From a virus (lineage: Duplodnaviria; Heunggongvirae; Uroviricota; Caudoviricetes), in IMG/VR virus record IMGVR_UViG_2541047913_000007: DNA of 64,000 nt; one strand, written 5' to 3'. Made by a program: the position numbers and the translations under genes. Of the stretch, positions 1,564-17,011 are shown in pieces; position 1 is the first letter of the stretch, and each line of letters opens with the position of its first letter. Under the pieces are notes generated by a model. That model was not told the origin of the DNA and did no database searches. It saw nothing but the letters and a program-made list of their open reading frames with translations.

Positions 1564-1744
1564 GAATCCTCCCTGGCGGGATAATGTTGTGAGTCAGATA
1601 AGGAGCGAGCTGAAGTCCGGAAGTTACAGGACAATGGCAGGAGGAAGACTACAGCCCGCAATACGAAAAAGGCCGCGCAGTTGCGCAGCCTTATGAATTC
1701 TGGTTAAAATCCATTCGATTATAAAAATGTATATCTCATGCTGT

Positions 1745-1776
1745 TGCCCGAACCCACTCGGGCTTTTTTTTGCCCA
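1745..1776 (+). terminator. Hairpin plus T8 tract (gcccgaacccactcgggc tttttttt), intrinsic terminator-like on plus strand
   Basis: Inverted repeat followed by run of T read directly. Confidence 0.4.
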
Positions 1777-1783
1777 CAAGAAA

Positions 1784-2035
1784 GCCCCTCCGGAGAGGGG
1801 CTAAAGCCGCGTATCTGTATCATCATGCACATGGTGCCGGGTGCCTCCCGGTGAGTTCAGCCCGGTGCCACTAAACCCGCGTCATTCTCGTTTTGATAAT
1901 CAGAGATTATACCGTCACCAGTCGCCCCTCCGCTCAGGGGGATTCACCATGCGAAATTTTTTTAACAAATGCCCAGTCTGACAGGCAACTGTCAACTTAC
2001 TGAATTGTGAGCAACATAGCATTTAACGGGGAACC
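1784..2035. repeat. Direct repeat unit A (~250 bp) with internal hairpins gcccctccggagaggggc and cccctccgctcaggggg
   Basis: Long blocks shared with unit B: aaagcccctccggagaggggct, gccgggtgcctcccggtgagttcag, gggggattcaccatgc, ctgaattgtgag. Confidence 0.7.
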
Positions 2036-2049
2036 TGTTTTCTGCAGTA

Positions 2050-2082
2050 AAAAGGCCCACCGGAGCGGATGGGCCTGGAAGG
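2050..2082 (-). terminator. Hairpin ggcccatccgctccggtgggcc followed by T-tract on minus strand
   Basis: Inverted repeat plus tttttact on minus strand, in spacer between repeat units. Confidence 0.4.
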
Positions 2083-2268
2083 ATAGCGGTCATGTGATGC
2101 CGGTTTCCCGGTAACTCAGCACCGGTATCTGAGTCAACGTTTTCTCTACTGGGTCATTTCCGATACGCCCTGCCTGCTGACAGGCTTTCATCACATCTGA
2201 AAATATAGCACCCTGACTGATACTGTAGTACCTAAGGTTCCAGAAACTGTGATGTATCCGGCACAGAA

Positions 2269-2520
2269 AAGCCCCTCCGGAGAGGGGCTGGAGAGTGGCG
2301 CTATGTGCCATTGCATGATGCCGGGTGCCTCCCGGTGAGTTCAGTATCAGCACCTGAACCCGCACAGAAAGGATAAGGGTCGGTGACAAAACACCAGTCG
2401 CTGATTGCCCCTCCGCACAGGGGGATTCACCATGCCAGTTTCTTTTAACAAACTCCCCGCAAACCAGACAACAGTCAACCGCCTGAATTGTGAGGTATTT
2501 AAAAATTTCAACGGGTAACT
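2269..2520. repeat. Direct repeat unit B (~250 bp), diverged copy of unit A
   Basis: Same conserved blocks as unit A in same order. Confidence 0.7.
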
Positions 2521-2618
2521 GATACCCTGCTAATCGCCTGATGCTTTCTTTTTCAGCAACGGGAAAGCAACAACCACCACACCCACCAGCCGCCCATTTA
2601 CCACAAATAAAAAAGCCT

Positions 2619-2939
2619 TCAGGACTGAAGGCGTCTGTAACAACCGAACTGATAGTCTGCCAGCCCCGCCATAACAAGCTGGGTCAGTATTAACTGGCAG
2701 CGTTCACGTGAAAGGTAAGTATTCTGCGCAATCTCCCCGACTGTCGCCGGTTCGGTGGCACTTAATTCATTAAACACCACTCTGGCGGTTTCGGTCATAT
2801 CCTGCTGTTTTAGCATGTCTTTTTCCATTTTCTGGTTAACGTAACATACCAATAACTCTTGTCGGAAAAGCCAGCAAGCTGAAAGACCGGTATTCGCAAC
2901 CACCAGCGCGTTTAATGTTCTGTGCCGTTTTTCAGGCAT
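2619..2939 (-). CDS. Hypothetical small protein, possible winged-helix DNA-binding fold, in the position occupied by stx in Stx phages; start uncertain
   Basis: ORF-track 106 aa; ATG abuts the U-tract of the upstream terminator so the true start may be an internal Met. Confidence 0.4.
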   Translation of the reverse strand: MPEKRHRTLNALVVANTGLSACWLFRQELLVCYVNQKMEKDMLKQQDMTETARVVFNELSATEPATVGEIAQNTYLSRERCQLILTQLVMAGLADYQFGCYRRLQS

Positions 2940-2963
2940 AAAAAAACCCGCAAAAAGCGGGCT
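2940..2963 (-). terminator. tR'-like intrinsic terminator downstream of Q (hairpin cccgctttttgcggg plus U7 on minus strand)
   Basis: Perfect 5-bp GC stem and 7 T on minus strand, ~80 nt after the Q stop. Confidence 0.6.
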
Positions 2964-3040
2964 CTTTCAAATGTCCATGTCTGCTATTCGCCTCGTGGTA
3001 CGGCTTTGCGAAGCGTACCGGAATTGAAGCAGTTTTTACG
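2964..3040 (-). promoter_or_regulatory. Putative late promoter pR'/qut region between Q stop and tR'-like terminator
   Basis: Position only, by analogy with lambda Q-pR'-tR' organisation. Confidence 0.3.
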
Positions 3041-3607
3041 TCAAAAAGCAATAACTTTTTTCTCTATACCAAAAGCCATAACCATTGGTTTGTACAAAAT
3101 AAATTCTGCCACCTTTAGCCAATGCTCAATGCGTCTTTCACAGGTTCTTAAACTCCATTCCGGGTGTGCATCATTCAGCAGTTCAGCCATTTTGCGCTTA
3201 GTCATCCCCCGCCCCACATAACGCTGACTCAGGACATTGAGCAGCCCGGGATAGCCTGCCAGGACTTCGCCAATAACCCTGTCGATTATTAACGCCTCTG
3301 AATCGGTACAATGTGCCAGCCAGCTTTTTTGATTGCCGTTGATCATATCCCGCAAAAAAGCCTCAAGTTCAGGTTTGTCCAGACCAGCTTTTTTCATCCT
3401 CCGGAGCGCCTCGTTAATTGCCGTTTTTGTCAGCTTTTTAGAGGTCAGTAATTGGTTGAACATATTTCCCGTCTTACCGCCGCCAATATACGACCAACGC
3501 CCCCACATCCGTAATCGCCCTTGGATCCAGACTGCTTCCAGCGTTTTTAGGCGTAAATGCTCGCCGCTTTTGCCTGTAATTTCCGGATATATCATATTTA
3601 CGCTCAC
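3041..3607 (-). CDS. Late-gene antiterminator Q (lambdoid Q family)
   Basis: 188 aa, directly downstream of rusA with GTGA stop/start overlap, followed by intrinsic terminator; context and size typical of Q. Confidence 0.7.
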   Translation of the reverse strand: MSVNMIYPEITGKSGEHLRLKTLEAVWIQGRLRMWGRWSYIGGGKTGNMFNQLLTSKKLTKTAINEALRRMKKAGLDKPELEAFLRDMINGNQKSWLAHCTDSEALIIDRVIGEVLAGYPGLLNVLSQRYVGRGMTKRKMAELLNDAHPEWSLRTCERRIEHWLKVAEFILYKPMVMAFGIEKKVIAF

Positions 3608-3969
3608 TCACTCTCAATTTTGTAAATCTTCACACCCAGCCGTCCACCAGATACTGGCTGACCACGTACAATATTGATTTCATCAAACTGCTCGTCATCA
3701 ATGAGCACTCCCGCATGCGTCAGCGCATCCAGCGGTGCTTTCAGAATGTTGTCCAGGTCGCGACGACGCTTATCCGGTGGCTCTGCAATCACCTTTATCG
3801 CCAGCCTTCCGGACAGGCTTAATTTCAGCCGCTGCTGGCGAACAATAAGCGCCACAGCCCGGCGATAACGCTTTCCCTCCTCCGAGATAAAATATGTGCT
3901 GCCACGGCGTCGCCAGTAAGTGTTCACCGTCGGCGGGTAAGGCAAAACAAATTCTATGCGTTCGGTCAT
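3604..3969 (-). CDS. rusA: RusA Holliday-junction resolvase
   Basis: 121 aa; motifs PYPPTVNTYW, RRRDLDN, LIDDEQ closely resemble E. coli RusA. Confidence 0.85.
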   Translation of the reverse strand: MTERIEFVLPYPPTVNTYWRRRGSTYFISEEGKRYRRAVALIVRQQRLKLSLSGRLAIKVIAEPPDKRRRDLDNILKAPLDALTHAGVLIDDEQFDEINIVRGQPVSGGRLGVKIYKIESE

Positions 3970-5028
3970 TTATGCTTTCCACTTCAGAACACCCGAATTT
4001 CTCGCGTGCATTAAAAAACGAATCAGCAACAACAACTGACTGCCGTGTTTTTCTTCAAAATCTTTTACTCCGGCATGTAGTTTGTTATGGCATTTACGGC
4101 ACAACGGAATAACAAACAAATCGTCAGCCTTTGTTCCCATACCTCCCAGTCCATGACCAATGATGTGATGCGGATCATCTGCCTGATTGCCACACGTCAT
4201 GCATTTCTGCGTTTTTACCCAGCGCGTGTATACAGGCATCTCTTTCCGTTGTGGTTTCTGGCGCTGGAGGTACTGAGCCGGAGACTCCGGATCAACGGCG
4301 ATGCTTACTAACGTCTTTTCCTGGGGTGGGGGCTGTTGCTGGTGGACGTGAAGTGGCAGCGCAATATTTTTTGTGCGCTGCTTCAGTATGCTGATGGCTG
4401 TCTGTTCTCCCGGTACGATGTCACTCTCACGGTATACGGAGCGGATTTTTTCCACCGGTAATCCCAGCGAACGACGCAATACAGACTCCGGAAGCGCATC
4501 AGCCACCTGATGACAAACCGCCCACCAGCATAACTCTGCCAGCGACAGTTCCCGCTCCTGTGTGCCATTCATTGCGTGACGTATGACATCAATCATCCTG
4601 GCTGCCAGATTCTGCTGAGCAAGTTGATCGAGTGATTCTGATGTCTGGTCGCGCAGCTGGTTGTCACAGTGCCAGCACAACACCATCGCGCCGGTACCGT
4701 AACGGTGAATGACGGTTTCGCTGTGATGATAATCACCGTGTGGCCACTGGCAGGATTTCACGTGACGTAATAACCAGTCAGACAGTGCACCAGCGCCACC
4801 CGCAGCACGAATCACCCGTTCGTTGCTGAAAAATGGCAGTAATGTTTTATCCTCTGCCAGCGGCTGTCGAACGGCAGGAACGACTCCGGACGGCAGATTA
4901 CGCATGCTTTTCGGTTCCGGCTCCACCAGTACCCGGGTATTGTGGAATACCGGCATGGATTCACGGCCCGGCTTAACGATCACCAGCCCGAGTTCCGGTA
5001 CCAGAACAGGTCGAAGTAATACCCGCAC
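3970..5028 (-). CDS. DUF968 family phage protein (YdfU-like), HNH-like C-terminal cysteine/histidine motif; start uncertain
   Basis: 352 aa; C-terminal CMTCGNQADDPHHIIGHGLGGMGTKADDLFVIPLCRKCHNKLH; conserved position upstream of rusA-Q. Confidence 0.65.
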   Translation of the reverse strand: MRVLLRPVLVPELGLVIVKPGRESMPVFHNTRVLVEPEPKSMRNLPSGVVPAVRQPLAEDKTLLPFFSNERVIRAAGGAGALSDWLLRHVKSCQWPHGDYHHSETVIHRYGTGAMVLCWHCDNQLRDQTSESLDQLAQQNLAARMIDVIRHAMNGTQERELSLAELCWWAVCHQVADALPESVLRRSLGLPVEKIRSVYRESDIVPGEQTAISILKQRTKNIALPLHVHQQQPPPQEKTLVSIAVDPESPAQYLQRQKPQRKEMPVYTRWVKTQKCMTCGNQADDPHHIIGHGLGGMGTKADDLFVIPLCRKCHNKLHAGVKDFEEKHGSQLLLLIRFLMHARNSGVLKWKA

Positions 5029-5029
5029 G

Positions 5030-5308
5030 TTACCTCCAGATGCGTTGCTGGAATGTGCGGGACGGACGCGGTGGGCGTTCAGAGTAAGGAAGCCTGACGG
5101 AGATTATCCAGTGACGATAATCGAGGCTGAGGGTTTTCCTAAACTCATACCCACGTCTGCGGTAGTTCTGAATCAGCCATTCGGCCTGTTCTTCAGTGCA
5201 TGGGGCGTGCTGTAACCTGTCAGATTTGAATGCATGAGAACGCCGCCCGTGCCTGCTGGCAAAGACGGCTGAATTATCAGAATTGTATAATTTGGTATCG
5301 TGCGCCAT
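5030..5308 (-). CDS. Hypothetical phage protein (start taken at internal ATG)
   Basis: ORF-track frame 5030..5389 begins with TTG; first ATG gives MAHDTKLYN... Confidence 0.35.
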   Translation of the reverse strand: MAHDTKLYNSDNSAVFASRHGRRSHAFKSDRLQHAPCTEEQAEWLIQNYRRRGYEFRKTLSLDYRHWIISVRLPYSERPPRPSRTFQQRIWR

Positions 5309-5384
5309 CGGTTGTCTCTGCTGGCGCAGCAGGTGCCAGTTGTTCAGGCTGGCGTGCGAATTGTAAACCAGAATGCCAGGAAAA

Positions 5385-5412
5385 AACAAAACCCGCCGAA
5401 GCGGGTTAAGTG
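5385..5412 (-). terminator. Intrinsic terminator downstream of hok (hairpin cccgcttcggcggg plus U-tract)
   Basis: Inverted repeat followed by ttttgtttttt on minus strand. Confidence 0.5.
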
Positions 5413-5475
5413 CGGGTGCGTTGAGGATGCCTGACTCATCAGAGGTGGCGAGGGATTTCTCCCTCGCCAGGTCTC

Positions 5476-5631
5476 TTACTCCTCAGGTTCGTAAGCTGTG
5501 AAGACAGCGACCTCCGTCTGGCCGGTTCGGATTCGTACCTCGCAGAGGTCTTTCCGCGTTACCAGTGCCGTCACAATGACGGTAATACAGATGACGATCA
5601 GGGCGACTAACATCGCCTTTTGCTGCTTCAT
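5476..5631 (-). CDS. hok: Hok/Gef family type I toxin (HokD/RelF-like, 51 aa)
   Basis: MKQQKAMLVALIVICITVIVTALVTRKDLCEVRIRTGQTEVAVFTAYEPEE is near-identical to E. coli HokD. Confidence 0.9.
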   Translation of the reverse strand: MKQQKAMLVALIVICITVIVTALVTRKDLCEVRIRTGQTEVAVFTAYEPEE

Positions 5632-5639
5632 AGCCTGCT

Positions 5640-5720
5640 TCTCCTTGCCTTTCGGCGTGTAAGAGGCTAACCTACATGTGACTAGCATGAAATTGGCCTC
5701 AGATTAATGTTAAGCGTCCT
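5640..5720 (+). ncRNA. Putative Sok-like antisense RNA region opposite the hok/mok leader (position inferred, not delimited)
   Basis: Established hok/sok architecture; no boundaries verified in sequence. Confidence 0.25.
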
Positions 5721-5867
5721 GCAAGACGCATAATGTTAACTGGGGCTTTTCTCTATCTGCCGTTGGTGTTCATGCCCGAGGCAGATAGCCTCAAGCACCC
5801 GCAGCAATTCTACTTAACTCACGTCACCTCGCCAATATGAAATCAATCAGAAAGGTGATCCATAAAA

Positions 5868-6554
5868 TCACTCCTTCTCTTCTTTTCCGTAGTGGAGTTG
5901 GCCAATTTTGATAAGAGGGCGTCCCTGAGATTTGCGGTGTAGATTGGTATCGCGCAGAGAATACACACAGCCACAATATTCCTGCTGATAGAATTTTTCG
6001 CGCTTGCTGATTTCAATCATACGGGACGAGCCGCCCTGCTTGCGCCAGTTATAATCCCAGTACACCATACCCGGATAATGCGCAACAGCTCGCCGCCCAC
6101 ACTCGTTAACCTGCTGCATATTTTTCCAGCGTGAAATGCCCAGTGAACTGCTGATCACACTGAAACCATTTTCAGCAGCGTACAACGCTGTCCGCTCAAA
6201 ACGCATGTCAAAACACATGGTACAACGGATCCCCCTCTCAGGCTCCCATTCCATTCCTTTGGCACGTTCAAACCAGTTGTCGGTGTCGTAATCAGCATCG
6301 ATAAACGGCACGCCGTGTTGTTCAGCAAAGCGAATATTTTCATCCTTACGAATTAAATACTCTTTCTGAGGATGAATGTTCGGGTTGTAGAAAAAGATGG
6401 TGTAGTCGATTCCCGAGGCCTGAAGCGCCTCCATCACTTCACCGGAACATGGAGCACAGCAAGAGTGCAGTAGTAGTTTGTTTGCCCCGTTTGGGAGTTC
6501 CAATTTAGGCCGTTTGAAATCAGCAATAGTCATAAATATTTTTATTGGGGTCAT
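5868..6554 (-). CDS. DUF208 / QueH-like protein (epoxyqueuosine reductase family candidate)
   Basis: 228 aa; N-terminal [14 protein letters not shown] and C-terminal [11 protein letters not shown] cysteine motifs characteristic of DUF208. Confidence 0.6.
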
Positions 6555-6707
6555 GAAAATAGCACAGAGTGTAGCATCAGAGCAGGGCTATCGGGAATAT
6601 ATGTCTAAATCTGGTAATATCTGGTTTTGACGCAAAGCGGACAACCACGCTGGCTCTACCCTGCGCCATGAAAATGTCAATTCACATCTGAACTAATGCT
6701 CTTTAAT

Positions 6708-7103
6708 CTAGTAACGTCTAAAATACCTAACATTTCCTTGATAAAATGCCAGTACACGCTGCATAACTTCGCTCTGGCGGCACTCACGACAAATTATGTT
6801 CTGCCGTCTGTTGTAACGACGTATTTCTCCGTCAGGTAACTTTCGAATCAGTGTCGGGTCAGCAGCCTTCTCCGGTGTCTTACGCCATACGCGATACGCC
6901 TGCTCTGATGGAAATACCCCGCAATCAGAGAGCCAGACATCACCACTGGCCGCAAGCGCACCAGATAAACGACGAATAGCGGTCTTACTGACACCCGTTT
7001 TATCTGCCAGTTGTCGAAAAGTTTCTCGTCCGCTCAGGCGCACGAATTCCACAATGCGCGCCTTCACTTCTTCCCGCTCTTCTGGTGTAAATACTTTTGC
7101 CAT
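6708..7103 (-). CDS. Hypothetical phage protein with HTH-like segment
   Basis: ATG at 7103 preceded by ggagg; segment LADKTGVSKTAIRRL. Confidence 0.45.
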   Translation of the reverse strand: MAKVFTPEEREEVKARIVEFVRLSGRETFRQLADKTGVSKTAIRRLSGALAASGDVWLSDCGVFPSEQAYRVWRKTPEKAADPTLIRKLPDGEIRRYNRRQNIICRECRQSEVMQRVLAFYQGNVRYFRRY

Positions 7104-7118
7104 AAGCGCCTCCGGCAA

Positions 7119-7844
7119 TCACTTTTCCGACACAATACGACCGGATGAATCGACAATCTGTCGAACAATATCCCGGTGCTTGTTCAGCTCCCGCAGCGCG
7201 GCGCAGACTCGCTCCCACTTCTGAACCTGACCTTTTGCCCGGCGCAGCTCGCGGTTAGCCACATGCAGCGATGGTAAAATCAGACCATCCGGATGTTTTC
7301 TGGTGAACGACGGCTGTGACTGCACTGTGACCGCCACACTTTCCGTTTTTATTTCTTCCTGTGTTTCTGCTTCCCGGACAGGTAACGCAACACCTGCTGG
7401 CTGAGGAAAGGCTTTACCATCGGTTTCCGCTACGGATGCAGCTTCCGGCTCTGCCGGTAAATCAGCGCCCGGTATGCAGTAACGAAATTTACCGCCCTGA
7501 TTCACGCGAATCAGACGCCCTTTGCTGATTGCCATGGCCAGCGATGAATTCGCCCGGCGGGAGGTAATCCCGAACATCAGTGCCAGCTCATCCGCCGTTT
7601 GTGGGCCATGTTGTTCAATCGCCTCAGTCAGCATTTGCGCTGTCACTTTCGGTACCGGTGACACCGGTTCACTTTCACCAGCCTGAATCAGCCGCCACAT
7701 CGAACCCTTGTTATCCGCTTCACCGCGGCGCTTCAGTTTCCACAGTTCGTTGACCGCATCTTCACGGCTGATTCCAAGGCGGGCCGCCACTACCTGTGAA
7801 GAGGCTCTTTTCAGTGCTTTCAGTGCGTCAAATACGGTTTCCAT
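7119..7844 (-). CDS. Hypothetical phage early protein with N-terminal winged-helix-like domain (DUF1627-like)
   Basis: [38 protein letters not shown]-terminus; ATG at 7844 preceded by ggagg. Confidence 0.45.
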
Positions 7845-7877
7845 TAAAATTTCCTCCGACAAAATCGTTTCTCAGAT

Positions 7878-8543
7878 TCAAATAAAACCAGCTGCCTTCC
7901 GGCGTTCGTATTCCTGTTTCAGCCGTTCAATTGGCGTTGGCCCTTGCGGGTGTTTCGCCCCTTCCAGTTGTCGTCGCACTGGCGGAACACTCATCCCGTT
8001 ACCAACATGCTTTGCCCATTTCGTCAGTTGCCGTTCCGCAAGTCGTTTTAACTCACCCTGCGTCATCTGGCGCTCAATCCCTCTGGTACGCATTTCGAGG
8101 CAGATGTGGTACAGCACAGGCTGTGGCCACGGGTATTTATCACTCCCGTCGTATCGCCAGGATTCATTGCGCCAGCGCCGGTACTCTTCCATCACTGCAT
8201 CCACCGTAAGACCAAATGGATTTGCCCCACTCTCCGAAATCAGTGCAACAAACTCAGCCAGGTCCGGGGGCCACGTTTCACCCGCCCGGCAGCGGTCCAT
8301 GCACTGACGGCAGACCAGCCGGATTTGCTGTTCAGTCATCGCGCCAATCTGGGCAATCCAGAGCTTCGAAGGTGCGGCCCCGTTCTTCTGGGTCCAGCGG
8401 TTCGAATACACCTCCCCCATAAGCTCCCACAGCTTCCAGGCCGTTTCCGTCGCTGATAAATCCGTTTTCACGTTCCCACTGCTCACGTGCTGCCCGAATT
8501 TCCTGAACTGCCCGTGATGCGGTGCCACCTGGTGCTGCTGCAT
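7878..8543 (-). CDS. Lambda P-like replication protein (helicase loader); 5' end overlaps O-like ORF in another frame, start uncertain
   Basis: C-terminal YPWPQPVLYHICLEMRTRG...TQGELKRLAERQLTKWAK parallels lambda P; adjacent to O-like gene. Confidence 0.6.
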   Translation of the reverse strand: MQQHQVAPHHGQFRKFGQHVSSGNVKTDLSATETAWKLWELMGEVYSNRWTQKNGAAPSKLWIAQIGAMTEQQIRLVCRQCMDRCRAGETWPPDLAEFVALISESGANPFGLTVDAVMEEYRRWRNESWRYDGSDKYPWPQPVLYHICLEMRTRGIERQMTQGELKRLAERQLTKWAKHVGNGMSVPPVRRQLEGAKHPQGPTPIERLKQEYERRKAAGFI

Positions 8544-9372
8544 GGTTTACCCCCTTGCTGACTGGTTTTACCTGTGCCCTGACGTGCTGCACGTGGCGGG
8601 CAAATTTCTGCTCCCACTGAACCTGCGTGAAAACCTTCCCCTCCGCCATCCAGTAATCCCGGAATGCGGCAAGCTCTGCAGGTGTAAATTCCGGCTCAGG
8701 CAGAGCCATACCCCACACTGCTGCCCGTTGTCGAAAATCCGACGACGGCTGCCAGACAGTAGTCATCGAAAATTTCCCGATCGGTTCGCTCAGGCCGTCC
8801 AGGTATTCAGGTTCGGCTGTCTGCAACGGCGCACCATGCGACTCACCGGTTGGAGCACTCTCGCGCATGCGCGCGTTATGTGTGGGGTTTAATTCTGTAT
8901 CTGTATCTTTATCTGTCGTGACTTGTCGTGACGGATGCGTGACACGTCGTGACTCATCGTGACAATCAGCATCATATTTCCGCAGCTTTTCGCGCTCCCG
9001 CTGCGCTCTCTTGCGCTCTGCCGGGGATTTTGCCGTTTGCGAAACGTTACCATTGTCCTCTTTCAGCACCTGACGTTTTTCCCATCCGGAAATAAGGTCA
9101 CCATCCAGAACCCGCCCCTGCATTGCATGCAAAATTGAATCAATTACGTCTTCCGTCACATCAAGCGCACTTGCTAAATCTTCCGTCGTGACATCAATGT
9201 GACCACGTAGTGACACGCCGTGACATGTCGTGACATTTCGTGACGCACTCACCAGAAGGTGGATATACACCGCCATCACTGTTGCGATTGGCTGTCCTGA
9301 GACCCTGGCAATGGTTCGCCATTTGGGATCATTTGGCATGTCATGCCACAATCTGAGCCAGGCATTAGCCAT
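8332..9372 (-). CDS. Replication initiator (lambda O-like / replisome organiser) containing two iteron clusters
   Basis: 346 aa from ATG at 9372; iterons embedded in coding sequence; position between cro-like/ydaT-like and P-like. Confidence 0.65.
   Translation of the reverse strand: MANAWLRLWHDMPNDPKWRTIARVSGQPIATVMAVYIHLLVSASRNVTTCHGVSLRGHIDVTTEDLASALDVTEDVIDSILHAMQGRVLDGDLISGWEKRQVLKEDNGNVSQTAKSPAERKRAQREREKLRKYDADCHDESRRVTHPSRQVTTDKDTDTELNPTHNARMRESAPTGESHGAPLQTAEPEYLDGLSEPIGKFSMTTVWQPSSDFRQRAAVWGMALPEPEFTPAELAAFRDYWMAEGKVFTQVQWEQKFARHVQHVRAQVKPVSKGVNHAAAPGGTASRAVQEIRAAREQWERENGFISDGNGLEAVGAYGGGVFEPLDPEERGRTFEALDCPDWRDD
8912..8965. repeat. Iteron cluster 1 (about 5 copies of CGTGAC-containing ~10-bp repeats), putative replication origin element
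   Basis: ctgtcgtgac ttgtcgtgac ggatgcgtgac acgtcgtgac tcatcgtgac. Confidence 0.7.
9183..9245. repeat. Iteron cluster 2 (about 6 copies of GTGAC-containing repeats)
   Basis: ccgtcgtgac...tgtgac...tagtgac...gccgtgac...tgtcgtgac...ttcgtgac. Confidence 0.7.
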
Positions 9373-9440
9373 ACTCACCTCATCTGATACCGAACTTTAC
9401 CCTCGAACATCCGGAAGAAATCCGGCATGAATATTGTTGG

Positions 9441-9866
9441 TCAATGCACGACAACAGCATTACCAGGCTGACCACCACTGTTAGTCAGGGTGCCCCAGGC
9501 GATCGCCGCTGCGACAAAATCATCCACATCTTTCACCAGCCGATCCCTCCGTTCGACGATCTCACGGTAATATTCAGAGCTGTGACTGCGCATACGGGCC
9601 ACCAGCAGAGGCGGCATTGCCTTTTCGATCGCCGGTAACAGAGCCTGAATTTTTTCAACAGCATCAGGGGTGTCTTTATCCAGCCAACGGAAAATTTTCT
9701 GGGTATTACGAGCCAGGGCTTCCGGATGGCTGTCGTCGTACAGTTCCGGGAACGTCATTCCCAGCTCGAAATACGCTTTGGTAATTTTCGCAGCCGGTAC
9801 TTTTTCGCCGTCCGGATGCGCCCAGACATTCATCGCCATGCGGATGTGTTCATGCTTGATTTTCAT
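9441..9866 (-). CDS. YdaT-like protein (Rac-type early protein in the cII position)
   Basis: 141 aa immediately downstream of the cro-like gene, overlapping its end. Confidence 0.45.
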   Translation of the reverse strand: MKIKHEHIRMAMNVWAHPDGEKVPAAKITKAYFELGMTFPELYDDSHPEALARNTQKIFRWLDKDTPDAVEKIQALLPAIEKAMPPLLVARMRSHSSEYYREIVERRDRLVKDVDDFVAAAIAWGTLTNSGGQPGNAVVVH

Positions 9867-10131
9867 GAATCAAGCTCCTAGAAAGTGGTTGTGTTAACGT
9901 TTTGGTATCTTCCAGCTCGGGCCAAATATTCATCCAATCAAAAGGCCTTAGTTGCTGACGTGTAACTTCACCATTACTGGCTCGCTCAATAAGGACACAT
10001 AACGATGCCCCTAACACTTGACCTTTACTCAATGCTTTTCTTAGATAACCGATGCTGGTACCACACTCGCATGCAAACATACGCTGTTCATCTGACGAAA
10101 GAGAATTGAGAAATATTCTTAATTCTTCCAT
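9850..10131 (-). CDS. Cro-like/YdaS-like HTH regulator
   Basis: 93 aa with HTH segment CECGTSIGYLRKALSKGQ; aaggag SD; divergent from repressor gene. Confidence 0.6.
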   Translation of the reverse strand: MEELRIFLNSLSSDEQRMFACECGTSIGYLRKALSKGQVLGASLCVLIERASNGEVTRQQLRPFDWMNIWPELEDTKTLTQPLSRSLIHENQA

Positions 10132-10231
10132 AGCTACTCCTTAGTAAACACAGCAAAGAATACCCGCAGGTAAACAAAAGTCAATACCCACAGGTTGTTT
10201 ACCTTACGGTAATCGCATCTATTATTTACCT
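10132..10231. promoter_or_regulatory. Divergent promoter/operator region between cro-like and repressor genes
   Basis: Inverted repeats caggtaaacaa...ttgtttacct and near-palindrome ttacggtaa. Confidence 0.5.
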
Positions 10232-10651
10232 ATGGACAAATATGAATTTAGACGACAGCAACTCATCAAAATTCGTGATGAGAAATGCGATGGTAAAGCG
10301 GTTAACGTGGCCAGAAAGATCGGGCGCGAGCCTTCTTATGTATCAAGAATGTTGTACCCAGAGGGGAAAAAGGGAAAAAAACGGATCGCTGATGATATGG
10401 TGGAGATTATCGAAGAGTCCTTTGGGTTACCCCGGGGATGGATGGATGGTATCGTTTCATCATCAACGAACACAGCCTCCAGTTATGAAACAAGGGTTCT
10501 AACGCCACGACAACGTATTTTTTTAGATCTCTTAGACGAACTGCCAGAAAGTGAAGCGGATAAATTATTAAAAACTCTTGAAGAGAAAAAACAGTATTAC
10601 AATATGATCTACGAAGAAATCCGTAAAAAGAAAGCACAAAACGCATCATAG
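10232..10651 (+). CDS. Phage repressor-like DNA-binding protein
   Basis: 139 aa, HTH-like segment AVNVARKIGREPSYVSRML; essentially leaderless ATG; divergent from cro-like. Confidence 0.55.
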   Translation: MDKYEFRRQQLIKIRDEKCDGKAVNVARKIGREPSYVSRMLYPEGKKGKKRIADDMVEIIEESFGLPRGWMDGIVSSSTNTASSYETRVLTPRQRIFLDLLDELPESEADKLLKTLEEKKQYYNMIYEEIRKKKAQNAS

Positions 10652-10692
10652 CTCACCAAACAACTAGTCACCAGTTAAGACACCGCAAAAAT

Positions 10693-10738
10693 TTACCCAT
10701 AGGTATTTACTTTTTGAATACCTATGGGTATCCTTCTT
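10693..10738 (+). terminator. 13-bp perfect inverted repeat (cccataggtattt...aatacctatggg) followed by T-rich tract
   Basis: Palindrome read directly, 40 bp after repressor stop. Confidence 0.4.
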
Positions 10739-10915
10739 TTCATACCAACCCACCCCGCCCCACAGAATGCAGGGCAATACTTCGAGTTACCCGGCAGTGG
10801 TCAGGGGTTAAGTAGCCAGCCCGAGGCGTATGAACATGACGGCGGGAACACTTTGTATAACAGCGCAGCAGGTTTTTGTTCCGCTACCCCGGCGTTAAGG
10901 GGAAATGAGGTCAGC

Positions 10916-11068
10916 ATGGATACTATCGAGCTTGGCAACAGCGAATCTCTGGTATGCGGCGTGTTTCCCAACCAGTACGGCACGTTTACCGCGATGACGT
11001 ATACCAAAAGTAAAACGTTTAAAACCGAAGCTGGCGCGCATCGCTGGTTAGCAAGAAACTCCGACTGA
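10916..11068 (+). CDS. Hypothetical small protein (50 aa)
   Basis: ATG preceded by gagg; within ORF-track frame 10724..11068. Confidence 0.3.
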   Translation: MDTIELGNSESLVCGVFPNQYGTFTAMTYTKSKTFKTEAGAHRWLARNSD

Positions 11069-11481
11069 TGAGGTTGACGATGGAATTTAAAGATTTACCA
11101 GTACCATTCCAGGAAATGGCATCGAATGTGGTTCGCTCTCAACTGGCGACTCTTGACCTGAGTACCGTAGAAAAAGAAACCATCGATACTATATCCGGTA
11201 ACGTGCGTCGTGCCTTTATAGGTCTGTATGAAGAGAAGCGCCTATTCGGCGGACAGAATTCGCCTGAAAACAAGAATCAAGCAAATGATGAGAAGCTGAA
11301 ACACATTATCGCCTTACTTTTGGAAGACGCAAAACGTCTACAGCAACTGGAACCAAATGCAGGCACAGAGGCCCGCATTTGGATTGCCATGAAATCACTC
11401 AAATGTGAAAGCAGTGATTATTTCAAAACAACAATTAAAACTACTCAACTTTCGGGAGAGCTACTGAAGAAATTGCCATAA
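11068..11481 (+). CDS. Hypothetical phage early protein
   Basis: 137 aa ORF, TGATG overlap with upstream ORF. Confidence 0.4.
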   Translation: MRLTMEFKDLPVPFQEMASNVVRSQLATLDLSTVEKETIDTISGNVRRAFIGLYEEKRLFGGQNSPENKNQANDEKLKHIIALLLEDAKRLQQLEPNAGTEARIWIAMKSLKCESSDYFKTTIKTTQLSGELLKKLP

Positions 11482-11725
11482 GAGCATGGTCTTTCTCTTG
11501 TTCTGCAAGATGAGCATTAATACCTGGTATGGTTTTTTCAAATTTATCTATCTGTTGAATAACAACTTCGCGGTATACGTTTGTTTTTGTACCACCAAGC
11601 GCAGCCGTTAATGCAGAAAGCATATTTAGTATCATATCAGTACGATATGAAAAGAATCCTGATAGCTTCATCTTGTTTTTCAATAATAGATTGCAGGGCC
11701 TCAATTTGCTTTTTATCCATTTCAC
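11441..11725 (-). CDS. Hypothetical protein (GTG start; a 27-codon ATG ORF with better SD exists in another frame)
   Basis: ORF track; convergent with 11068..11481. Confidence 0.25.
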   Translation of the reverse strand: MKWIKSKLRPCNLLLKNKMKLSGFFSYRTDMILNMLSALTAALGGTKTNVYREVVIQQIDKFEKTIPGINAHLAEQEKDHALMAISSVALPKVE

Positions 11726-12281
11726 CCTCCTGAGGGTTGGTAATTAAGGAGTTCTCCACGGGTCAGGTGGAGTGCGTGCGCCGGACACGGGTGAGCATCC
11801 GGCACTGACAGTTTACTGAAAGGATATGTCCCTGAAAAGTCAGGGCATAACGCGAAAGCGCACGGCGAAATTGGTCTCTCTGTACGGTGTCGTTAAATTT
11901 AGTTCGACCGTGCACTTCCGGTTGTGGCACTCCGCGAAATGGCGCGGCGGTAAGTATGGCTGGGGTTTCCTCCATTGCTCCAGAAAATGCACCGGGTTGT
12001 CAGGTTGACCATACGCTTAAGTGACAGCCCCGCCACAATACCCATGCGTAGTCTTTGGTGGCATCAGTTCTACTCCGTGACTGCTCTGCCACCCTTTTTA
12101 AAGTGAATTTTGTGATGCGGTGAATGCGGCTATGCGCACGCGGAACAGTTAAAACCGTAAAGTGGTCTTTTACGGGGCGTAACGGGCATCCTTCTGTATT
12201 CCGGCGTTAATTGTTAACTGGTTAACGTCACCTGGAGGCACCAGGCACTGCATCACAAAATTCATTGTTGAGGACGCGATA

Positions 12282-12470
12282 ATGGAAACGTTATTACCAA
12301 ACGTTAATACGTCTGAAGGTTGTTTTGATATTGGAGTTCTGCTCAGTAACCGGGAGTTTACTGAAGATGCCATTAAGATGAGAAAATATGAACCTTATCT
12401 TCTCAATGATAATTCCATACTTTCCAGAATTGCCCTTCTTGAACTTGGTATTATCGGAGAACAGCAGTGA
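12282..12470 (+). CDS. Hypothetical small protein (62 aa)
   Basis: ATG preceded by gagga; ATGA overlap with next ORF. Confidence 0.4.
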   Translation: METLLPNVNTSEGCFDIGVLLSNREFTEDAIKMRKYEPYLLNDNSILSRIALLELGIIGEQQ

Positions 12471-12655
12471 CTTCAGCATTTGCACTGGTGATGACCGTTT
12501 TTCTTATAACGGGTGAGCCACAAAATGTGATTACCGGAATTTATGACAGTAAGTCATCCTGCATTCAGGTAAGGGACGAACAAAAAATCCCCGGTGAATG
12601 CCTCCCGTTAAAAAAAGTATCGCTGTACCTGAATAACGAAACACCGGCTGGATAA
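12467..12655 (+). CDS. Hypothetical small protein with hydrophobic N-terminus (62 aa)
   Basis: MTSAFALVMTVFLITG N-terminal hydrophobic segment; translationally coupled to upstream ORF. Confidence 0.4.
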   Translation: MTSAFALVMTVFLITGEPQNVITGIYDSKSSCIQVRDEQKIPGECLPLKKVSLYLNNETPAG

Positions 12656-12747
12656 CCCGCCAGCCATATTAACGCCATACCAACGGATTAAAAATGCCAG
12701 CAATGGCAGGAATTTGTTCATCCTTAAAATGGTTATGAGGTTTATCA

Positions 12748-15186
12748 ATGAACGCTGATAAAGAAGAAATTGCACTATATTACGAAGCCAAAAATGACAA
12801 AGTCAGAAAACGCCTTGGGATTAAAGGTGGTTTTTACTGGCGCACAGCAAAAAAATTATCGGTTGCAATATCACGCGGTGTTGCTGCAATGGACGATGCC
12901 GGATTTGACGAAGAGGATTTTAAAAAACCCATCCGCGTCCATTTACCCGTTGTGAATGACCTTCCACCGGAAGGTGTGTTTGATACTGAATTCTGCAACC
13001 GATACGAAAAAGGCGGAGAAGATGGTATCACAATGATATTTATAGCGCCCTCCCCCTCAGTTCAGGACAAACCAGCCAGCACTGACAATACCAACGTCAA
13101 TGGCGAAGACATGGCTGAGATTGAGGATAATATGCTCCTGCCGATTTCCGGTCAGGAACTGCCCATTCGCTGGCTTGCGCAACATGGCAGCGAAAAACCG
13201 GTAACGCACGTTTCACGAGAAGAACTTCAGGCATTACATATCGCACGAGCTGAAGAACTACCGGCTGTTACTGGCCTGGCTATTTCCCACAACACAAAGC
13301 TGCTCGACCCGCTGGAGATTCGCGACCTTCACAAATTGGTACGCGACACTGACAAAGTTTTCCCTAATCCCGTTAATTCCAGTCTGGGGTTCATGACTGC
13401 TTTTTTCGAAGCATACCTGGACACTGACTATACCGATCGAGGTCTGCTGACAAAAGAGTGGATGAAAGGAAATCGTGTTTCTCGCATCACCCGCACGGCT
13501 TCCGGTGCAAATGCCGGTGGCGGAAATAAAACCGATCGTAATCCTGACTTAGTACACACTCTCGATACTCTGGATGTGGAGGCTGCAGCAGCCACGCTTC
13601 CGATGGATTTTAATATTTATGAAATTCCCGGGAGCGTTTATCGTCGCGCAAAAGAAATCGTCCTGAAAAAAGAAAGTCCGTTCAGGGAATGGTCCGCAGC
13701 ACTTCGCGCAACCCCTGGTATCCTGGACTATTCCCGCGCAGCTATTTTTGCACTTATCCGAAGCGCCCACCCTGAGTTTTATCACTACCCGGGGCGCCTT
13801 CAGGGGTATATCAATGCCAACCTGACAGAAACTGATCACGAGAATCCCACAGCTGAAACGCTCATGGCTGCCCGGCATACACCGGAAAAAGATATCCTGG
13901 AAGAAATTAACGGCGGACTGGCTGCTGAGTGCAAAACAGAAGAAGAAAAAAATGATGAAGATAACCCGCAACCATCTGGCGCAATGGCAGATGAACAGGC
14001 AACGGCTGAAACAATGGCAGCGGATACAGTTGAACATCATCAGGACCCGCAGCCGCTGGATGACAAGTCACAGGTAAAAGTTACCGCTGACGAAGTAAAC
14101 AAAATTATGCAGGCAGCCAATATCAGCCAGCCTGACGCCGATAAGTTGCTTGCTGCCTCTCGCGGAGAATTTGTTGCAGGGATTAGCGACCCGAATGATC
14201 CGAAATGGGTAAAGGGGATTGAAACCCGCGATTCTGTAAACCAGAACCAGCAAGAATCGGAACAGAACGACCAGAAAGCGGAACAAAACAGCCCAAATGC
14301 GTTACAAAACGAGCCAGAAACGAAACAGCCTGAACCAGTGGCGCAACAGGAAGTGGAAAAAGTCTGCACCGCCTGCGGTCAGACCGGCGGCGGCAACTGC
14401 CCTGATTGTGGCGCGGTGATGGGCGACGCAACATACCAGGAAACATTCGATGAAGAGTATCAGGTTGAAGTTCAGGAAGATGATCCGGAGGAAATGGAAG
14501 GCGCTGAACATCCACACAAGGAGAATGCTGGCAGCGCTCAGGATCACGCCAGCGATAGTGAAACTGGCGAGACGGCAGATCCCTTAATTACGGTGAACGG
14601 TCATCACGTTATCACATCCACCAGCAGGTTGTGGCACCATCTGATGATTGACCTTGAAACCATGGGAAAAAATCCTGATGCCCCGATCATCTCAATAGGT
14701 GCAATATTTTTCGATCCGCAAACCGGAGATATGGGACCGGAATTTAGTAAGACTATCGATCTGGAAACTGCTGGCGGGGTCATTGATCGGGACACCATTA
14801 AATGGTGGCTTAAGCAATCACGCGAAGCGCAATCTGCCATTATGACCGATGAAATCCCGTTAGATGATGCACTGTTACAATTGCGGGAATTTATCGACGA
14901 AAACTCCGGTGAATTTTTTGTTCAGGTCTGGGGAAATGGAGCCAACTTCGACAACACGATTTTGCGCCGTTCATACGAACGGCAGGGGATCCCCTGCCCG
15001 TGGAGTTACTACAACGATCGCGATGTACGCACAATCGTTGAGCTGGGGAAAGCCATAGACTTCGATGCCAGAACTGCTACCCCATTCGAAGGTGAGCGCC
15101 ATAATGCACTTGATGACGCCCGTTATCAGGCAAAATACGTTTCAGCTATCTGGCAAAAACTGATCCCGAGTCAGGCTGATTTTTAA
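12748..15186 (+). CDS. Large early protein with acidic linker, CxxC zinc ribbon and C-terminal DEDDh (DnaQ-like) 3'-5' exonuclease domain
   Basis: 812 aa; [16 protein letters not shown]; exonuclease motifs [33 protein letters not shown]. Confidence 0.7.
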
Positions 15187-15257
15187 TGTTCAACCGTCGT
15201 CGGTTGCAATTGGTATTCTGCAACCGGCGTTCATCTGATGTAAGAGATAAAGAATCG

Positions 15258-15509
15258 ATGAGCGAAGTAATCATGATCGTCTCTCCTGGCAAATGGGTAT
15301 CCGAAGAGCAGTTAATTGCACTTAAAGGAATCAAAAAGGGAACGCTAAAAAAAGCCAGGGAAAAATCGTTTATGGAAGGAAGGGAATATAAGCATGTCGC
15401 TCATGACGGTATGCCATGGGATAACAGTCCATGCTTTTACAACCTGGAAGAAATTGATCGCTGGATTGAGCGCCAGGCATCTGCAAGACCAAGACGTCAT
15501 CTTGCTTGA
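15258..15509 (+). CDS. xis: Excisionase-like protein
   Basis: 83 aa immediately upstream of integrase. Confidence 0.5.
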   Translation: MSEVIMIVSPGKWVSEEQLIALKGIKKGTLKKAREKSFMEGREYKHVAHDGMPWDNSPCFYNLEEIDRWIERQASARPRRHLA

Positions 15510-15528
15510 CTAAAAGCAACACGAACCA

Positions 15529-16824
15529 ATGAGAGAAGCTGAAATGAAATATCCGACAGGCGTGGAAAACCATGGAGGGAAATTACGTATCTGGTTTGTT
15601 TATAAAGGTGTAAGAGTCCGGGAAAATCTTGGGGTTCCTGACACAGCAAAAAACAGACGCATTGCAGGTGAGCTACGCGCCTCTGTTTGTTACGCAATAA
15701 AAACTGGCGCTTTCGACTATGCAAAACAGTTTCCCGCCTCACACAATCTGGAAAAATTTGGTGAGGCCCGACAAGATTTAACCATAAAAGAACTGGCTGA
15801 AAAATTTCTGGCACTGAAAGAAACTGAAGTCGCAAAAACGTCACTCAACACGTACCGTGCCGTCATCAAAAATATTCTGAGCATAATCGGTGAAAAAAAT
15901 CTTGCATCATCGATTAATAAAGAAAAATTGCTGGCAGTACGTAAAGAGTTACTGACTGGATACCAGATCCCCAAAAGTAACTATATTGTTACACAACCAG
16001 GGAGATCGGCTGTTACCGTAAATAATTACATGACAAATCTTTACGCCGTGTTCCAGTTTGGTGTTGATAACGGTTATCTGGCAGACAATCCATTTAAGGG
16101 GATCTCACCATTAAAGGAGTCGAGAACCATCCCGGATCCACTTTCGCGGGAGGAGTTTATCCGCCTTATTGACGCGTGCAGAAATCAGCAAGCCAAAAAT
16201 TTATGGTGTGTTTCCGTTTATACTGGGATTCGCCCTGGTGAACTCTGTGCGCTTGGATGGGAAGATATAGATCTGAAAAATGGAACAATGATAATCAGAA
16301 GAAATCTGGCAAAAGACCGTTTTACAGTACCAAAAACACAGGCGGGAACCAATCGTGTGATTCACCTTATTAAGCCCGCAATCGACGCTCTCCGGAGTCA
16401 GATGGCACTAACGAGACTGAGCAAAGAGCATATCATCGATGTTCACCTCAGAGAATTCGGCAGAACAGAGAAACAAAAATGTACCTTTGTTTTTCAACCT
16501 GAAGTGTCAGCGAAAGTAAAAAATTATGGTGACCATTTTACCGTTGACTCAATAAGGCAGATGTGGGACGCAGCGGTAAAGCGTGCCGGAATCCGCCATC
16601 GCAAATCGTATCAGTCGAGACACACTTATGCCTGCTGGTCGTTAACAGCAGGAGCTAACCCGGCATTCATTGCAAACCAGATGGGCCATGCAGATGCGCA
16701 AATGGTGTTTCAGGTGTACGGGAAATGGATGTCAGAAAATAATAATGCGCAGGTAACGCTGTTAAATACACAGTTAAGCGAGTTTGCCCCAACCATGCCC
16801 CATAACGAAGCAATGAAAAATTAA
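15529..16824 (+). CDS. int: Tyrosine site-specific integrase
   Basis: 431 aa; C-terminal RHTYACW and HAD...MVFQVYGKW catalytic-region motifs; terminal position next to host gene. Confidence 0.85.
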   Translation: MREAEMKYPTGVENHGGKLRIWFVYKGVRVRENLGVPDTAKNRRIAGELRASVCYAIKTGAFDYAKQFPASHNLEKFGEARQDLTIKELAEKFLALKETEVAKTSLNTYRAVIKNILSIIGEKNLASSINKEKLLAVRKELLTGYQIPKSNYIVTQPGRSAVTVNNYMTNLYAVFQFGVDNGYLADNPFKGISPLKESRTIPDPLSREEFIRLIDACRNQQAKNLWCVSVYTGIRPGELCALGWEDIDLKNGTMIIRRNLAKDRFTVPKTQAGTNRVIHLIKPAIDALRSQMALTRLSKEHIIDVHLREFGRTEKQKCTFVFQPEVSAKVKNYGDHFTVDSIRQMWDAAVKRAGIRHRKSYQSRHTYACWSLTAGANPAFIANQMGHADAQMVFQVYGKWMSENNNAQVTLLNTQLSEFAPTMPHNEAMKN

Positions 16825-17011
16825 TTTAATATTTATCAAATAGTTAACACGCATGACTCTTGAAATCCATAAATTCAAGCGCAGTGCCCAGCCATCCCGA
16901 TACTGCTGCTTTCACCAAATCCTTAGTGCTTCTTTCATGTTTTTCTATTGTCATAATGGTTATCTCTAAAAAAGAGGTAAGATGCGTACTACTTACTCGC
17001 CGTTATTGGTA
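16825..17011. other. Prophage 1 attachment junction (attR side) between int and rspB
   Basis: Intergenic AT-rich 187 bp between integrase stop and rspB stop. Confidence 0.4.

Follow-up and report, generated by a model that had tools for sequence, protein, structure and literature searches.

The window, i.e., the whole stretch of 64,000 nucleotides of DNA analysed here (Caudoviricetes; IMG/VR record IMGVR_UViG_2541047913_000007), carries at positions 12748 to 15186 an early prophage gene whose product of 812 amino acids (aa) is almost certainly a chimera. Residues 1-615 correspond to the non-catalytic N-terminal scaffold of the recombination nuclease RecE, and residues 616-812 to a DEDDh exonuclease domain of the DexA/Rv2179c type, which takes the place of the PD-(D/E)XK nuclease of RecE. 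The open reading frame (ORF) of 812 codons reported in the original prediction is intact and uninterrupted, and a GAGG Shine-Dalgarno motif lies 8 nt 5' of the ATG. The organisation of the gene, where AF2 refers to AlphaFold2 models and pLDDT to their predicted local distance difference test, is as follows:

12748..15186, plus strand: complete gene of 812 aa, RecE N-terminal scaffold and DEDDh exonuclease (ORF call, ATG start)
12748..13056, plus strand: head domain, alpha/beta, aa 1-103, confident in AF2
12913..13314, plus strand: Pfam Exonuc_VIII (PF06630), aa 56-189 (E-value 1e-33, 117.4 bits for a cut-off of 25)
13105..13917, plus strand: helical domains, aa 120-390, in two regions (120-250 and 260-390; AF2 helices, pLDDT mostly above 85)
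13918..14352, plus strand: linker, aa 391-535, acidic (many E, D and Q residues) and disordered over most of its length (pLDDT mostly below 50)
14365..14409, plus strand: CxxC-x7-CxxC zinc-ribbon-like motif, C540-x2-C543-x7-C551-x2-C554 (regular expression and alignment)
14588..14592, plus strand: mosaic junction at aa ~614-615, where DNA and protein similarity to recE ends (DNA alignment with K-12 recE-recT; BLASTP)
14618..14625, minus strand: Chi octamer GCTGGTGG, some 30 bp downstream of the mosaic junction (octamer search)
14635..15153, plus strand: DEDDh 3'-5' exonuclease domain, aa 630-802, catalytic D635, E637, D735, H785 and D790 (Pfam PF16473)

The C-terminal domain covers the whole of the Pfam family PF16473, i.e., the Rv2179c-like 3'-5' exoribonucleases (profile positions 1-177 of 177; E-value 3.7e-67, 225.9 bits for a cut-off of 27). 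When the C-terminal 197 residues were aligned with T4 DexA and twelve standalone homologues, D635, E637, D735, H785 and D790 fell in invariant columns, which DexA shares through D7, E9, H186 and D191. The short motifs from which a DnaQ-like exonuclease had originally been proposed are genuine, DLETMG providing D635 and E637, NGANFD providing D735, and HNALDDA providing H785 and D790. The AF2 model of residues 616-812 (mean pLDDT 87.5) adopts an RNase H-like alpha/beta fold, for which the top Foldseek match is T4 DexA (8kel; E-value 1.6e-11, template modelling score 0.72), followed by RNase T, the DnaQ domain, Orn and REXO2, with a probability of 1.00 for DexA, RNase T, DnaQ and Orn. In a sequence search of the PDB, T4 DexA was the sole match to this domain. 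The Pfam score and the Foldseek ranking thus bear out a DnaQ-like DEDDh 3'-5' exonuclease as opposed to a nuclease of the lambda-Exo/RecE PD-(D/E)XK type; a RecE fold at the C-terminus had been named as the observation that would speak against this assignment, and the fold found there is DEDDh. Of the last residues of the protein, the tail ...LIPSQADF or close variants (residues 806-812, 15163-15183) is kept in the DEDDh domains of the E. coli group but not in distant homologues.

The N-terminal domain, taken at first for an unknown one, belongs to the RecE N-terminal region, as indicated by the Exonuc_VIII match, the NCBIfam RecE profile and the identity to RecE of E. coli K-12. Residues 1-615 align to positions 1-603 of the 877 positions of the NCBIfam RecE equivalog NF007259; with the final third of this profile unmatched, the score of 895 stays under the cut-off of 1269. 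By BLASTP, residues 58-615 share 57% identity with K-12 RecE residues 50-592, including the acidic tract and the zinc-ribbon motif, which reads CNACGQTGGDNCPDC in K-12 RecE; this alignment stops at query residue 615 and RecE residue 592, and nothing aligns past it. At the DNA level, the gene is near-identical to K-12 recE through the zinc ribbon and the acidic region, then diverges abruptly at ~14590. As such, the zinc ribbon anticipated in the original prediction is present as C540/C543/C551/C554, but it is part of the RecE region and not a separately fused module. In RecE itself, the nuclease domain spans residues 564-866, and the sole reported effect of the N-terminal domain is to enhance linear-linear recombination (PMC11611040).

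The AF2 model of the scaffold, computed from an alignment of 41 diverse family members, reached a mean pLDDT of 73.6. Besides the confident head and helices, two short helices (aa 447-471) interrupt the disorder of the linker, and the zinc-ribbon-like element is modelled with short strands at a pLDDT of about 80. The segment most widely common to the family lies at aa ~240-390, many representative matches covering only query residues ~240-380, and F219 and W238 are nearly invariant in the scaffold family; the CxxC-x7-CxxC motif was found in none of the 37 more distant family members examined. Close to the junction, the Chi site is kept in a related ydfE-type gene (locus L002, 30122-30129), and in the two genes its distance to the gene end is about 570 bp. 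In a genome rich in Chi this could be coincidental, or else the site could be a remnant of the recombination by which the mosaic joint arose.

Within its family, the scaffold occurs with either nuclease. The first homologue search was saturated by near-identical E. coli entries; the diversity of the family was taken from a search of residues 1-615 against 1.84 billion representative proteins, which returned only 263 clusters. Long scaffold members (P numbers designate the proteins and L numbers the loci compared) were then classed by C-terminal domain with local phmmer, resulting in 14 clusters where the scaffold is followed by a DEDDh domain (e.g., P0241, P0252, P0286, P0301, and P0311) and at least 22 where it is followed by a RecE nuclease (e.g., P0251, P0262, and P0266). 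The exchange of nucleases is both ancient and recent, since P0242 is 84% identical to the first 260 residues of the window protein and yet ends in a RecE nuclease. Ten scaffold members match neither nuclease, and their tails are devoid of a Pfam domain with the exception of P0245. In this protein of 703 aa, the RecE N-terminal region (Exonuc_VIII) is fused straight to a RecT domain with no nuclease between, probably as the result of an in-frame deletion across the recE-recT boundary. The other nine, namely P0248, P0303, P0310, P0319, P0322, P0327, P0355, P0378, and P0340, bear tails of 240-450 residues that match no RecE nuclease, DEDDh or Pfam family; these may be truncations, may bear a third kind of C-terminal domain, or may correspond to the "RecE-2" proteins devoid of a nuclease that PMC12315714 mentions.

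The genes lying downstream were examined for both types. The two RecE-type genes examined are followed, respectively, by RecT (P0251) and by a RecT-sized protein of unassigned family (P0266). All eight DEDDh-type genes examined, i.e., the window gene, three E. coli relatives and four distant relatives, have xis and/or int directly next. The four distant relatives, found on other genomic or metagenomic contigs, share only 30-40% identity over the scaffold but exhibit the same architecture and gene order. Because every one of the eight adjoins xis or int, the absence of an annealase is a conserved property of the DEDDh architecture and not a local deletion. As for the RecT-sized protein next to P0266 (271 aa; L014, 6565-7380), it occupies the usual position of RecT directly downstream, has no Pfam match on record and was matched by phrog_3657 only; it could be an unrecognised type of annealase.

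The head of the protein varies too. In E. coli K-12, ydfE (L011, 5079-5999) matches, at 99% identity, the first 256 residues of an intact protein of 823 aa, P0250, which is present at the Qin site of strain JNEC-KY177 and in which a YdfE-type head precedes a RecE-like middle region, a zinc ribbon and a DEDDh domain matching those of the window protein. Pairwise comparison of K-12 ydfE with the window protein revealed no similarity, and the link is solely via the intact 823-aa form. Given this 99% match, ydfE is the stump, truncated by IS2, of a member of this gene family with an alternative head, and the head domains of the scaffold family are interchangeable as well.

The original prediction further stated that no single-strand annealing protein gene is adjacent, which holds for the whole prophage: scans with Pfam and PHROGs together with tblastn found none, whether adjacent or elsewhere. 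Among the 27 other prophage ORFs scanned with Pfam and PHROGs, no member of the RecT, Beta, Erf, Sak or Sak4 families and no single-strand DNA-binding protein (SSB) was found, and tblastn with RecT and with the RecE nuclease domain across the 64 kb gave no match (best E-value 0.07). No anti-RecBCD protein (Gam, GamL, Abc2, or MuGam) was detected in the prophage by the same Pfam and PHROGs scans or in the annotation of a related prophage. Likewise, no annealing protein is annotated in three related E. coli prophages, one of which was covered from the tail tape-measure gene to the integrase. The canonical lambdoid Rec module (PMC12315714) was accordingly rejected as a description of this locus, both the annealase and the anti-RecBCD protein being absent.

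Chi octamers are dense in this prophage. Seven were counted in its 16.9 kb (window 1-16900), five of them on the minus strand, and two in the remaining 47 kb of chromosome (16900-64000), for a chance expectation of only 2.2 in the whole window. A related prophage (L002, 1-32400) carries 11 Chi in 32 kb, nine of which are co-oriented. According to the literature, 22% of lambdoid phages have no Rec module, and this group is abundant in Chi, its prototype LLS growing better with RecBCD; sporadic genes for DnaQ-type nucleases near int have also been reported in lambdoid phages (PMC12315714, 2025). The window prophage resembles this Chi-rich class without Rec module, and its gene fits the description of a sporadic DnaQ-type nuclease near int.

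The gene occupies the recombination-gene position of lambdoid phages, as had been claimed, and lies directly upstream of xis and int. The operon comprises, in order, the regulator, a DUF1391 protein, two ORFs of unassigned function, DicF, DicB, a YdfD-like protein, the exonuclease, the excisionase and the integrase, among which the following were located:

10232..10651, plus strand: putative prophage transcriptional regulator, head of the leftward operon (phrog_5736 "transcriptional regulator", E-value 6.4e-70)
12043..12094, plus strand: DicF small RNA (sRNA), upstream in the operon (Rfam RF00039, 58.9 bits for a gathering score of 48)
12282..12470, plus strand: DicB cell-division inhibitor (Pfam PF05358, E-value 3.7e-38)
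12467..12655, plus strand: YdfD-like DUF1482 protein (Pfam PF07358, E-value 7.6e-15; K-12 ydfD is in the same position)
15186..15509, plus strand: excisionase DUF1233 (Pfam PF06806, E-value 3.4e-31, ORF aa 29-97); the true start is probably internal
15529..16824, plus strand: tyrosine integrase (Pfam Arm-DNA-bind_2 and Phage_integrase)

The regulator gene and the YdaS- and YdaT-like genes diverge. The integrase is followed by rspB, rspA and ynfA, of which rspB and rspA are likewise found in L002 and K-12. The prophage is thus integrated at the attachment site that Qin occupies in K-12, with dicF, dicB, ydfD, ydfE (pseudogene), IS2, intQ (pseudogene) and rspB as the gene order there. In K-12, DicA represses the dicB promoter, from which transcription extends over ydfD and ydfE as well (PMC11430063); this suggests expression upon derepression rather than in the quiescent lysogen. 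A scan for consensus promoters around the exonuclease gene returned fewer sites than in shuffled sequences and gave no significant promoter of its own.

The other prophage ORFs include RusA, a DUF968/HNH protein, O- and P-like replication proteins, Q, QueH and hok/sok. The epoxyqueuosine reductase QueH (5868-6554, minus strand; Pfam E-value 1.1e-65) lies between the replication genes and a nin-like region and is annotated in a related prophage too, while the hok/sok-type toxin-antitoxin (5476-5800, minus strand) consists of a MokW/Hok-like ORF and a sok RNA (Rfam, 113 bits). Downstream of the gene for the Q-like antiterminator, two tandem copies of the STnc100 sRNA (1772-1981 and 2259-2464, minus strand) and the AsxR "anti-stx2" sRNA (1716-1768, plus strand) form an arrangement (1716-2464) that typifies late control regions of the Stx-phage-like kind. 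A 137-aa ORF on the plus strand (phrog_1363) and a 94-aa ORF overlapping it on the minus strand (phrog_18692) separate the DUF1391 gene from DicF (11068-11725); the cargo at this place is different in relatives, e.g., relBE in L001.

This gene is common. A protein identical to the window product is already in NCBI (EOX22144.1, EFA6267246.1) and found on 26 contigs under the names "exonuclease" or "3'-5' exoribonuclease", and full-length DNA copies occur in 1243 of 5426 complete E. coli genomes, i.e., about a quarter, where the Prokaryotic Genome Annotation Pipeline labels them "exonuclease" or "3'-5' exonuclease". Other database records read "exodeoxyribonuclease VIII" or "RecE family exodeoxyribonuclease", and a DEDDh-type gene is also present in Escherichia phage vB_EcoS-640R1, a record submitted as the genome of a phage. 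Relative to two E. coli homologues, the ratio of non-synonymous to synonymous substitution rates (dN/dS; Nei-Gojobori) is about 0.19 for the whole gene and 0.12-0.23 for the head, helical region and linker; the DEDDh domain gave 0.15 and 0.40 with these close homologues and 0.12 with a distant one. One short segment gave a value above 1, which derives from very few changes. On these low values, purifying selection acts on every domain, and a decaying relic is disfavoured. With an identical protein on record, full-length copies in 1243 of the 5426 genomes and a dN/dS of about 0.15-0.2, chance is no explanation of the observation. Databases already list the exact protein along with its Pfam architecture and PHROG families; no paper was found in the literature describing explicitly the chimera of RecE scaffold and DEDDh domain, nor its link with ydfE.

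From its residues and fold, the protein is probably an active 3'-5' exonuclease acting on DNA. T4 DexA is a DNA exonuclease (PMC12153337), and DNA is favoured as the substrate since (i) the nearest solved relative is a DNase, (ii) standalone relatives are found in recombination modules, and (iii) the scaffold otherwise carries a DNase. Altogether, the explanation that best accommodates the data, and on which our judgement is about evenly balanced, is an intact, chimeric nuclease gene of a dicBF-type early-left operon, the product of which would process DNA 3' ends. The exonuclease would be made when the operon is derepressed on induction, and its two-metal 3'-5' active site would trim nucleotides off free DNA 3' ends, whether single strands or 3' tails. 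The RecE-type scaffold would provide the same tethering or assembly function as in RecE. Once 3' tails are trimmed, the ends would become loadable by RecBCD, which could then reach the Chi sites of the phage. It is proposed that the enzyme is not half of an exonuclease/annealase pair. An accessory role in DNA-end processing, in a phage relying on the host RecBCD and RecA, is tentatively suggested by analogy because the prophage has neither annealase nor RecBCD inhibitor and is dense in co-oriented Chi.

Several points weigh against this end-processing role. Chief among them is that homologous recombination is usually inhibited, not promoted, by DnaQ-like 3'-5' exonucleases (PMC12315714). RecBCD itself loads on blunt ends or ends with short overhangs, and the need for a trimming enzyme of the phage is a supposition. 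Chi sites are enriched over the prophage as a whole, which by itself does not implicate this gene. The matched Pfam family is named for an exoribonuclease, and RNA substrates may be possible. More generally, the activity and role of the protein are read from sequence, model and analogy.

As candidate functions, the original prediction named recombination, anti-defence or degradation of host nucleic acids. A fourth and quite unlikely alternative, taken from the literature, is an HREX-type defence, in which the DEDDh domain would digest incoming phage DNA with modified cytosines, such as the 5-hydroxymethylcytosine (5hmC) of T-even phages, and shield the host from superinfection. The domain does belong to the DexA family, prophages often bear defence genes, and DicB, encoded in the same operon as the exonuclease, protects against some phages, which counts for such a function. 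A plasmid-borne homologue of E. coli, EcD, degrades 5hmC DNA and the DNA of T4, and blocks T4 (PMC12153337), and is the only homologue of this DexA-like family with a reported phenotype. On the other side, the window domain falls outside the HREX type when judged as that paper does: W152 and D169 of DexA, proposed to recognise 5hmC (PMC12153337), align with Y755 and A769, although the alignment near D169 is uncertain; D90 of DexA, a tetramer residue that is Ala in EcD, is kept as D707; the gene resides in a repressor-controlled early-left operon (PMC11430063); and the PADLOC defence profiles gave no match for the exonuclease gene or its small neighbours. EcD was compared by description, being a short standalone protein that reads MIDTET...TIPETY according to the primers of the paper. 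These ends were not found among 240 homologues, and a 20-mer gave only chance matches in viral and genome collections; Cap18 (7t2s) was considered as EcD and rejected. Judging by its description, EcD probably falls in a standalone clade of about 185-190 aa, several members of which have Ala and Trp at the positions of DexA D90 and W152.

That the enzyme would degrade RNA 3' ends, signalling oligonucleotides or retron multicopy single-stranded DNA, and so disarm host immunity during induction, is improbable. The name of the Pfam family, after the M. tuberculosis exoribonuclease Rv2179c, points in this direction, as do structural neighbours such as RNase T, Orn, REXO2 and the CBASS-associated Cap18, and early expression is when counter-defence would be useful; still, the three arguments given above in favour of a DNA substrate count against it, no known anti-defence family was matched, and no supporting paper was found in the literature. 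A functionless relic, where recombination destroyed a recE-recT module and left a hybrid ORF lingering in decaying prophages, is very improbable. Many carrier prophages are admittedly defective, the K-12 counterpart ydfE is an IS2-truncated pseudogene, and truncated or oddly fused versions are common in databases, but the ORF is intact at full length in the 1243 complete genomes, dN/dS is low in all domains, the five catalytic residues are all invariant, and the architecture and gene order persist in homologues with 30-40% scaffold identity, as well as in the record of phage vB_EcoS-640R1. Finally, the chance that this is a true RecE, i.e., the 5'-3' recombination exonuclease that several records name, is negligible. 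Its N-terminal 600 residues are RecE-like, which agrees with these names, but the RecE nuclease domain is absent past residue 615 and was not retrieved in the window by tblastn, the NF007259 score falls short of its cut-off, and the next genes are xis and int with no RecT. This identity is refuted by the sequence itself.

As the terms "exodeoxyribonuclease VIII" and "RecE family" imply a 5'-3' recombination nuclease, which the protein cannot be, its annotation should follow the C-terminal domain. With PD-(D/E)XK or DEDDh domains borne by the same scaffold in close and distant copies alike, it can be argued that the RecE N-terminus is independent of both nuclease polarity and RecT. The swap constitutes a natural experiment on the role of this N-terminus, which boosts linear-linear recombineering. 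Found at full length in about a quarter of complete E. coli genomes, in Chi-dense and annealase-free prophages, the gene is a candidate for the handling of DNA ends without a Rec module. A broader proposal, which we consider doubtful, is that the RecE N-terminus of ~600 residues is a nuclease-agnostic delivery module loaded with exonucleases of opposite polarity, and that the DEDDh form represents a second, annealase-free recombination strategy. In Chi-rich phages, the DEDDh-loaded form would shape ends for the host RecBCD and RecA, or might serve additionally as a nuclease attacking phages whose DNA is modified. If true, this would provide a testable function for the long-unexplained RecE N-terminus.

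Compared with known systems, the gene is a common and catalogued E. coli gene, and its architecture is not a new kind of system, the chimera and the ydfE link being refinements of known things. Rv2179c of M. tuberculosis, a 3'-5' exoribonuclease, is the founder of the family PF16473 matched by the window domain but is a standalone bacterial RNase; as it is not among the PDB sequence matches, the relationship is at the level of the family profile only, and a literature search on Rv2179c in phages or prophages found nothing relevant. T4 DexA (8kel, 8ken) is, of the solved structures, the best match in sequence and in structure alike, with the same DEDDh fold and catalytic residues, yet identity is only about 20-26%, and DexA is a standalone protein of 227 aa with extra loops from a virulent phage, as opposed to a part of a fusion of 812 aa. 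Much closer is the standalone DnaQ-like "Exo" of the lambdoid Rec modules of phages epsilon34 and mEp235 (PMC12315714), which is 59% identical to the C-terminal domain and likewise has its gene within the early-left operon. The mEp235 "Exo" has about 180 aa and no RecE scaffold, and lies between the SSB gene and abc2, next to a gene for an Erf-like annealase, whereas the window gene stands alone beside xis and int; the neighbourhood of this homologue ties the window-type DEDDh domain to DNA transactions. With ydfE, the gene shares the chromosomal locus and the operon position (dicF, dicB, ydfD, ydfE, int, rspB), but no similarity was detected between the ydfE-type head (the first 250 aa or so) and the head of the window protein, and the K-12 copy is dead. 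With RecE, i.e., exonuclease VIII of the K-12 prophage Rac, it shares the CxxC-x7-CxxC motif, the acidic linker and the same slot in the early-left operon of Rac/Qin-type lambdoid prophages, at 57% identity. In pairwise comparison, however, the first ~57 residues are unrelated to RecE, neither recT, ralR nor rcbA follows as it does in Rac, and RecE residues ~593-866, a PD-(D/E)XK nuclease of 5'-3' polarity, are replaced by a DEDDh domain of the 3'-5' type.

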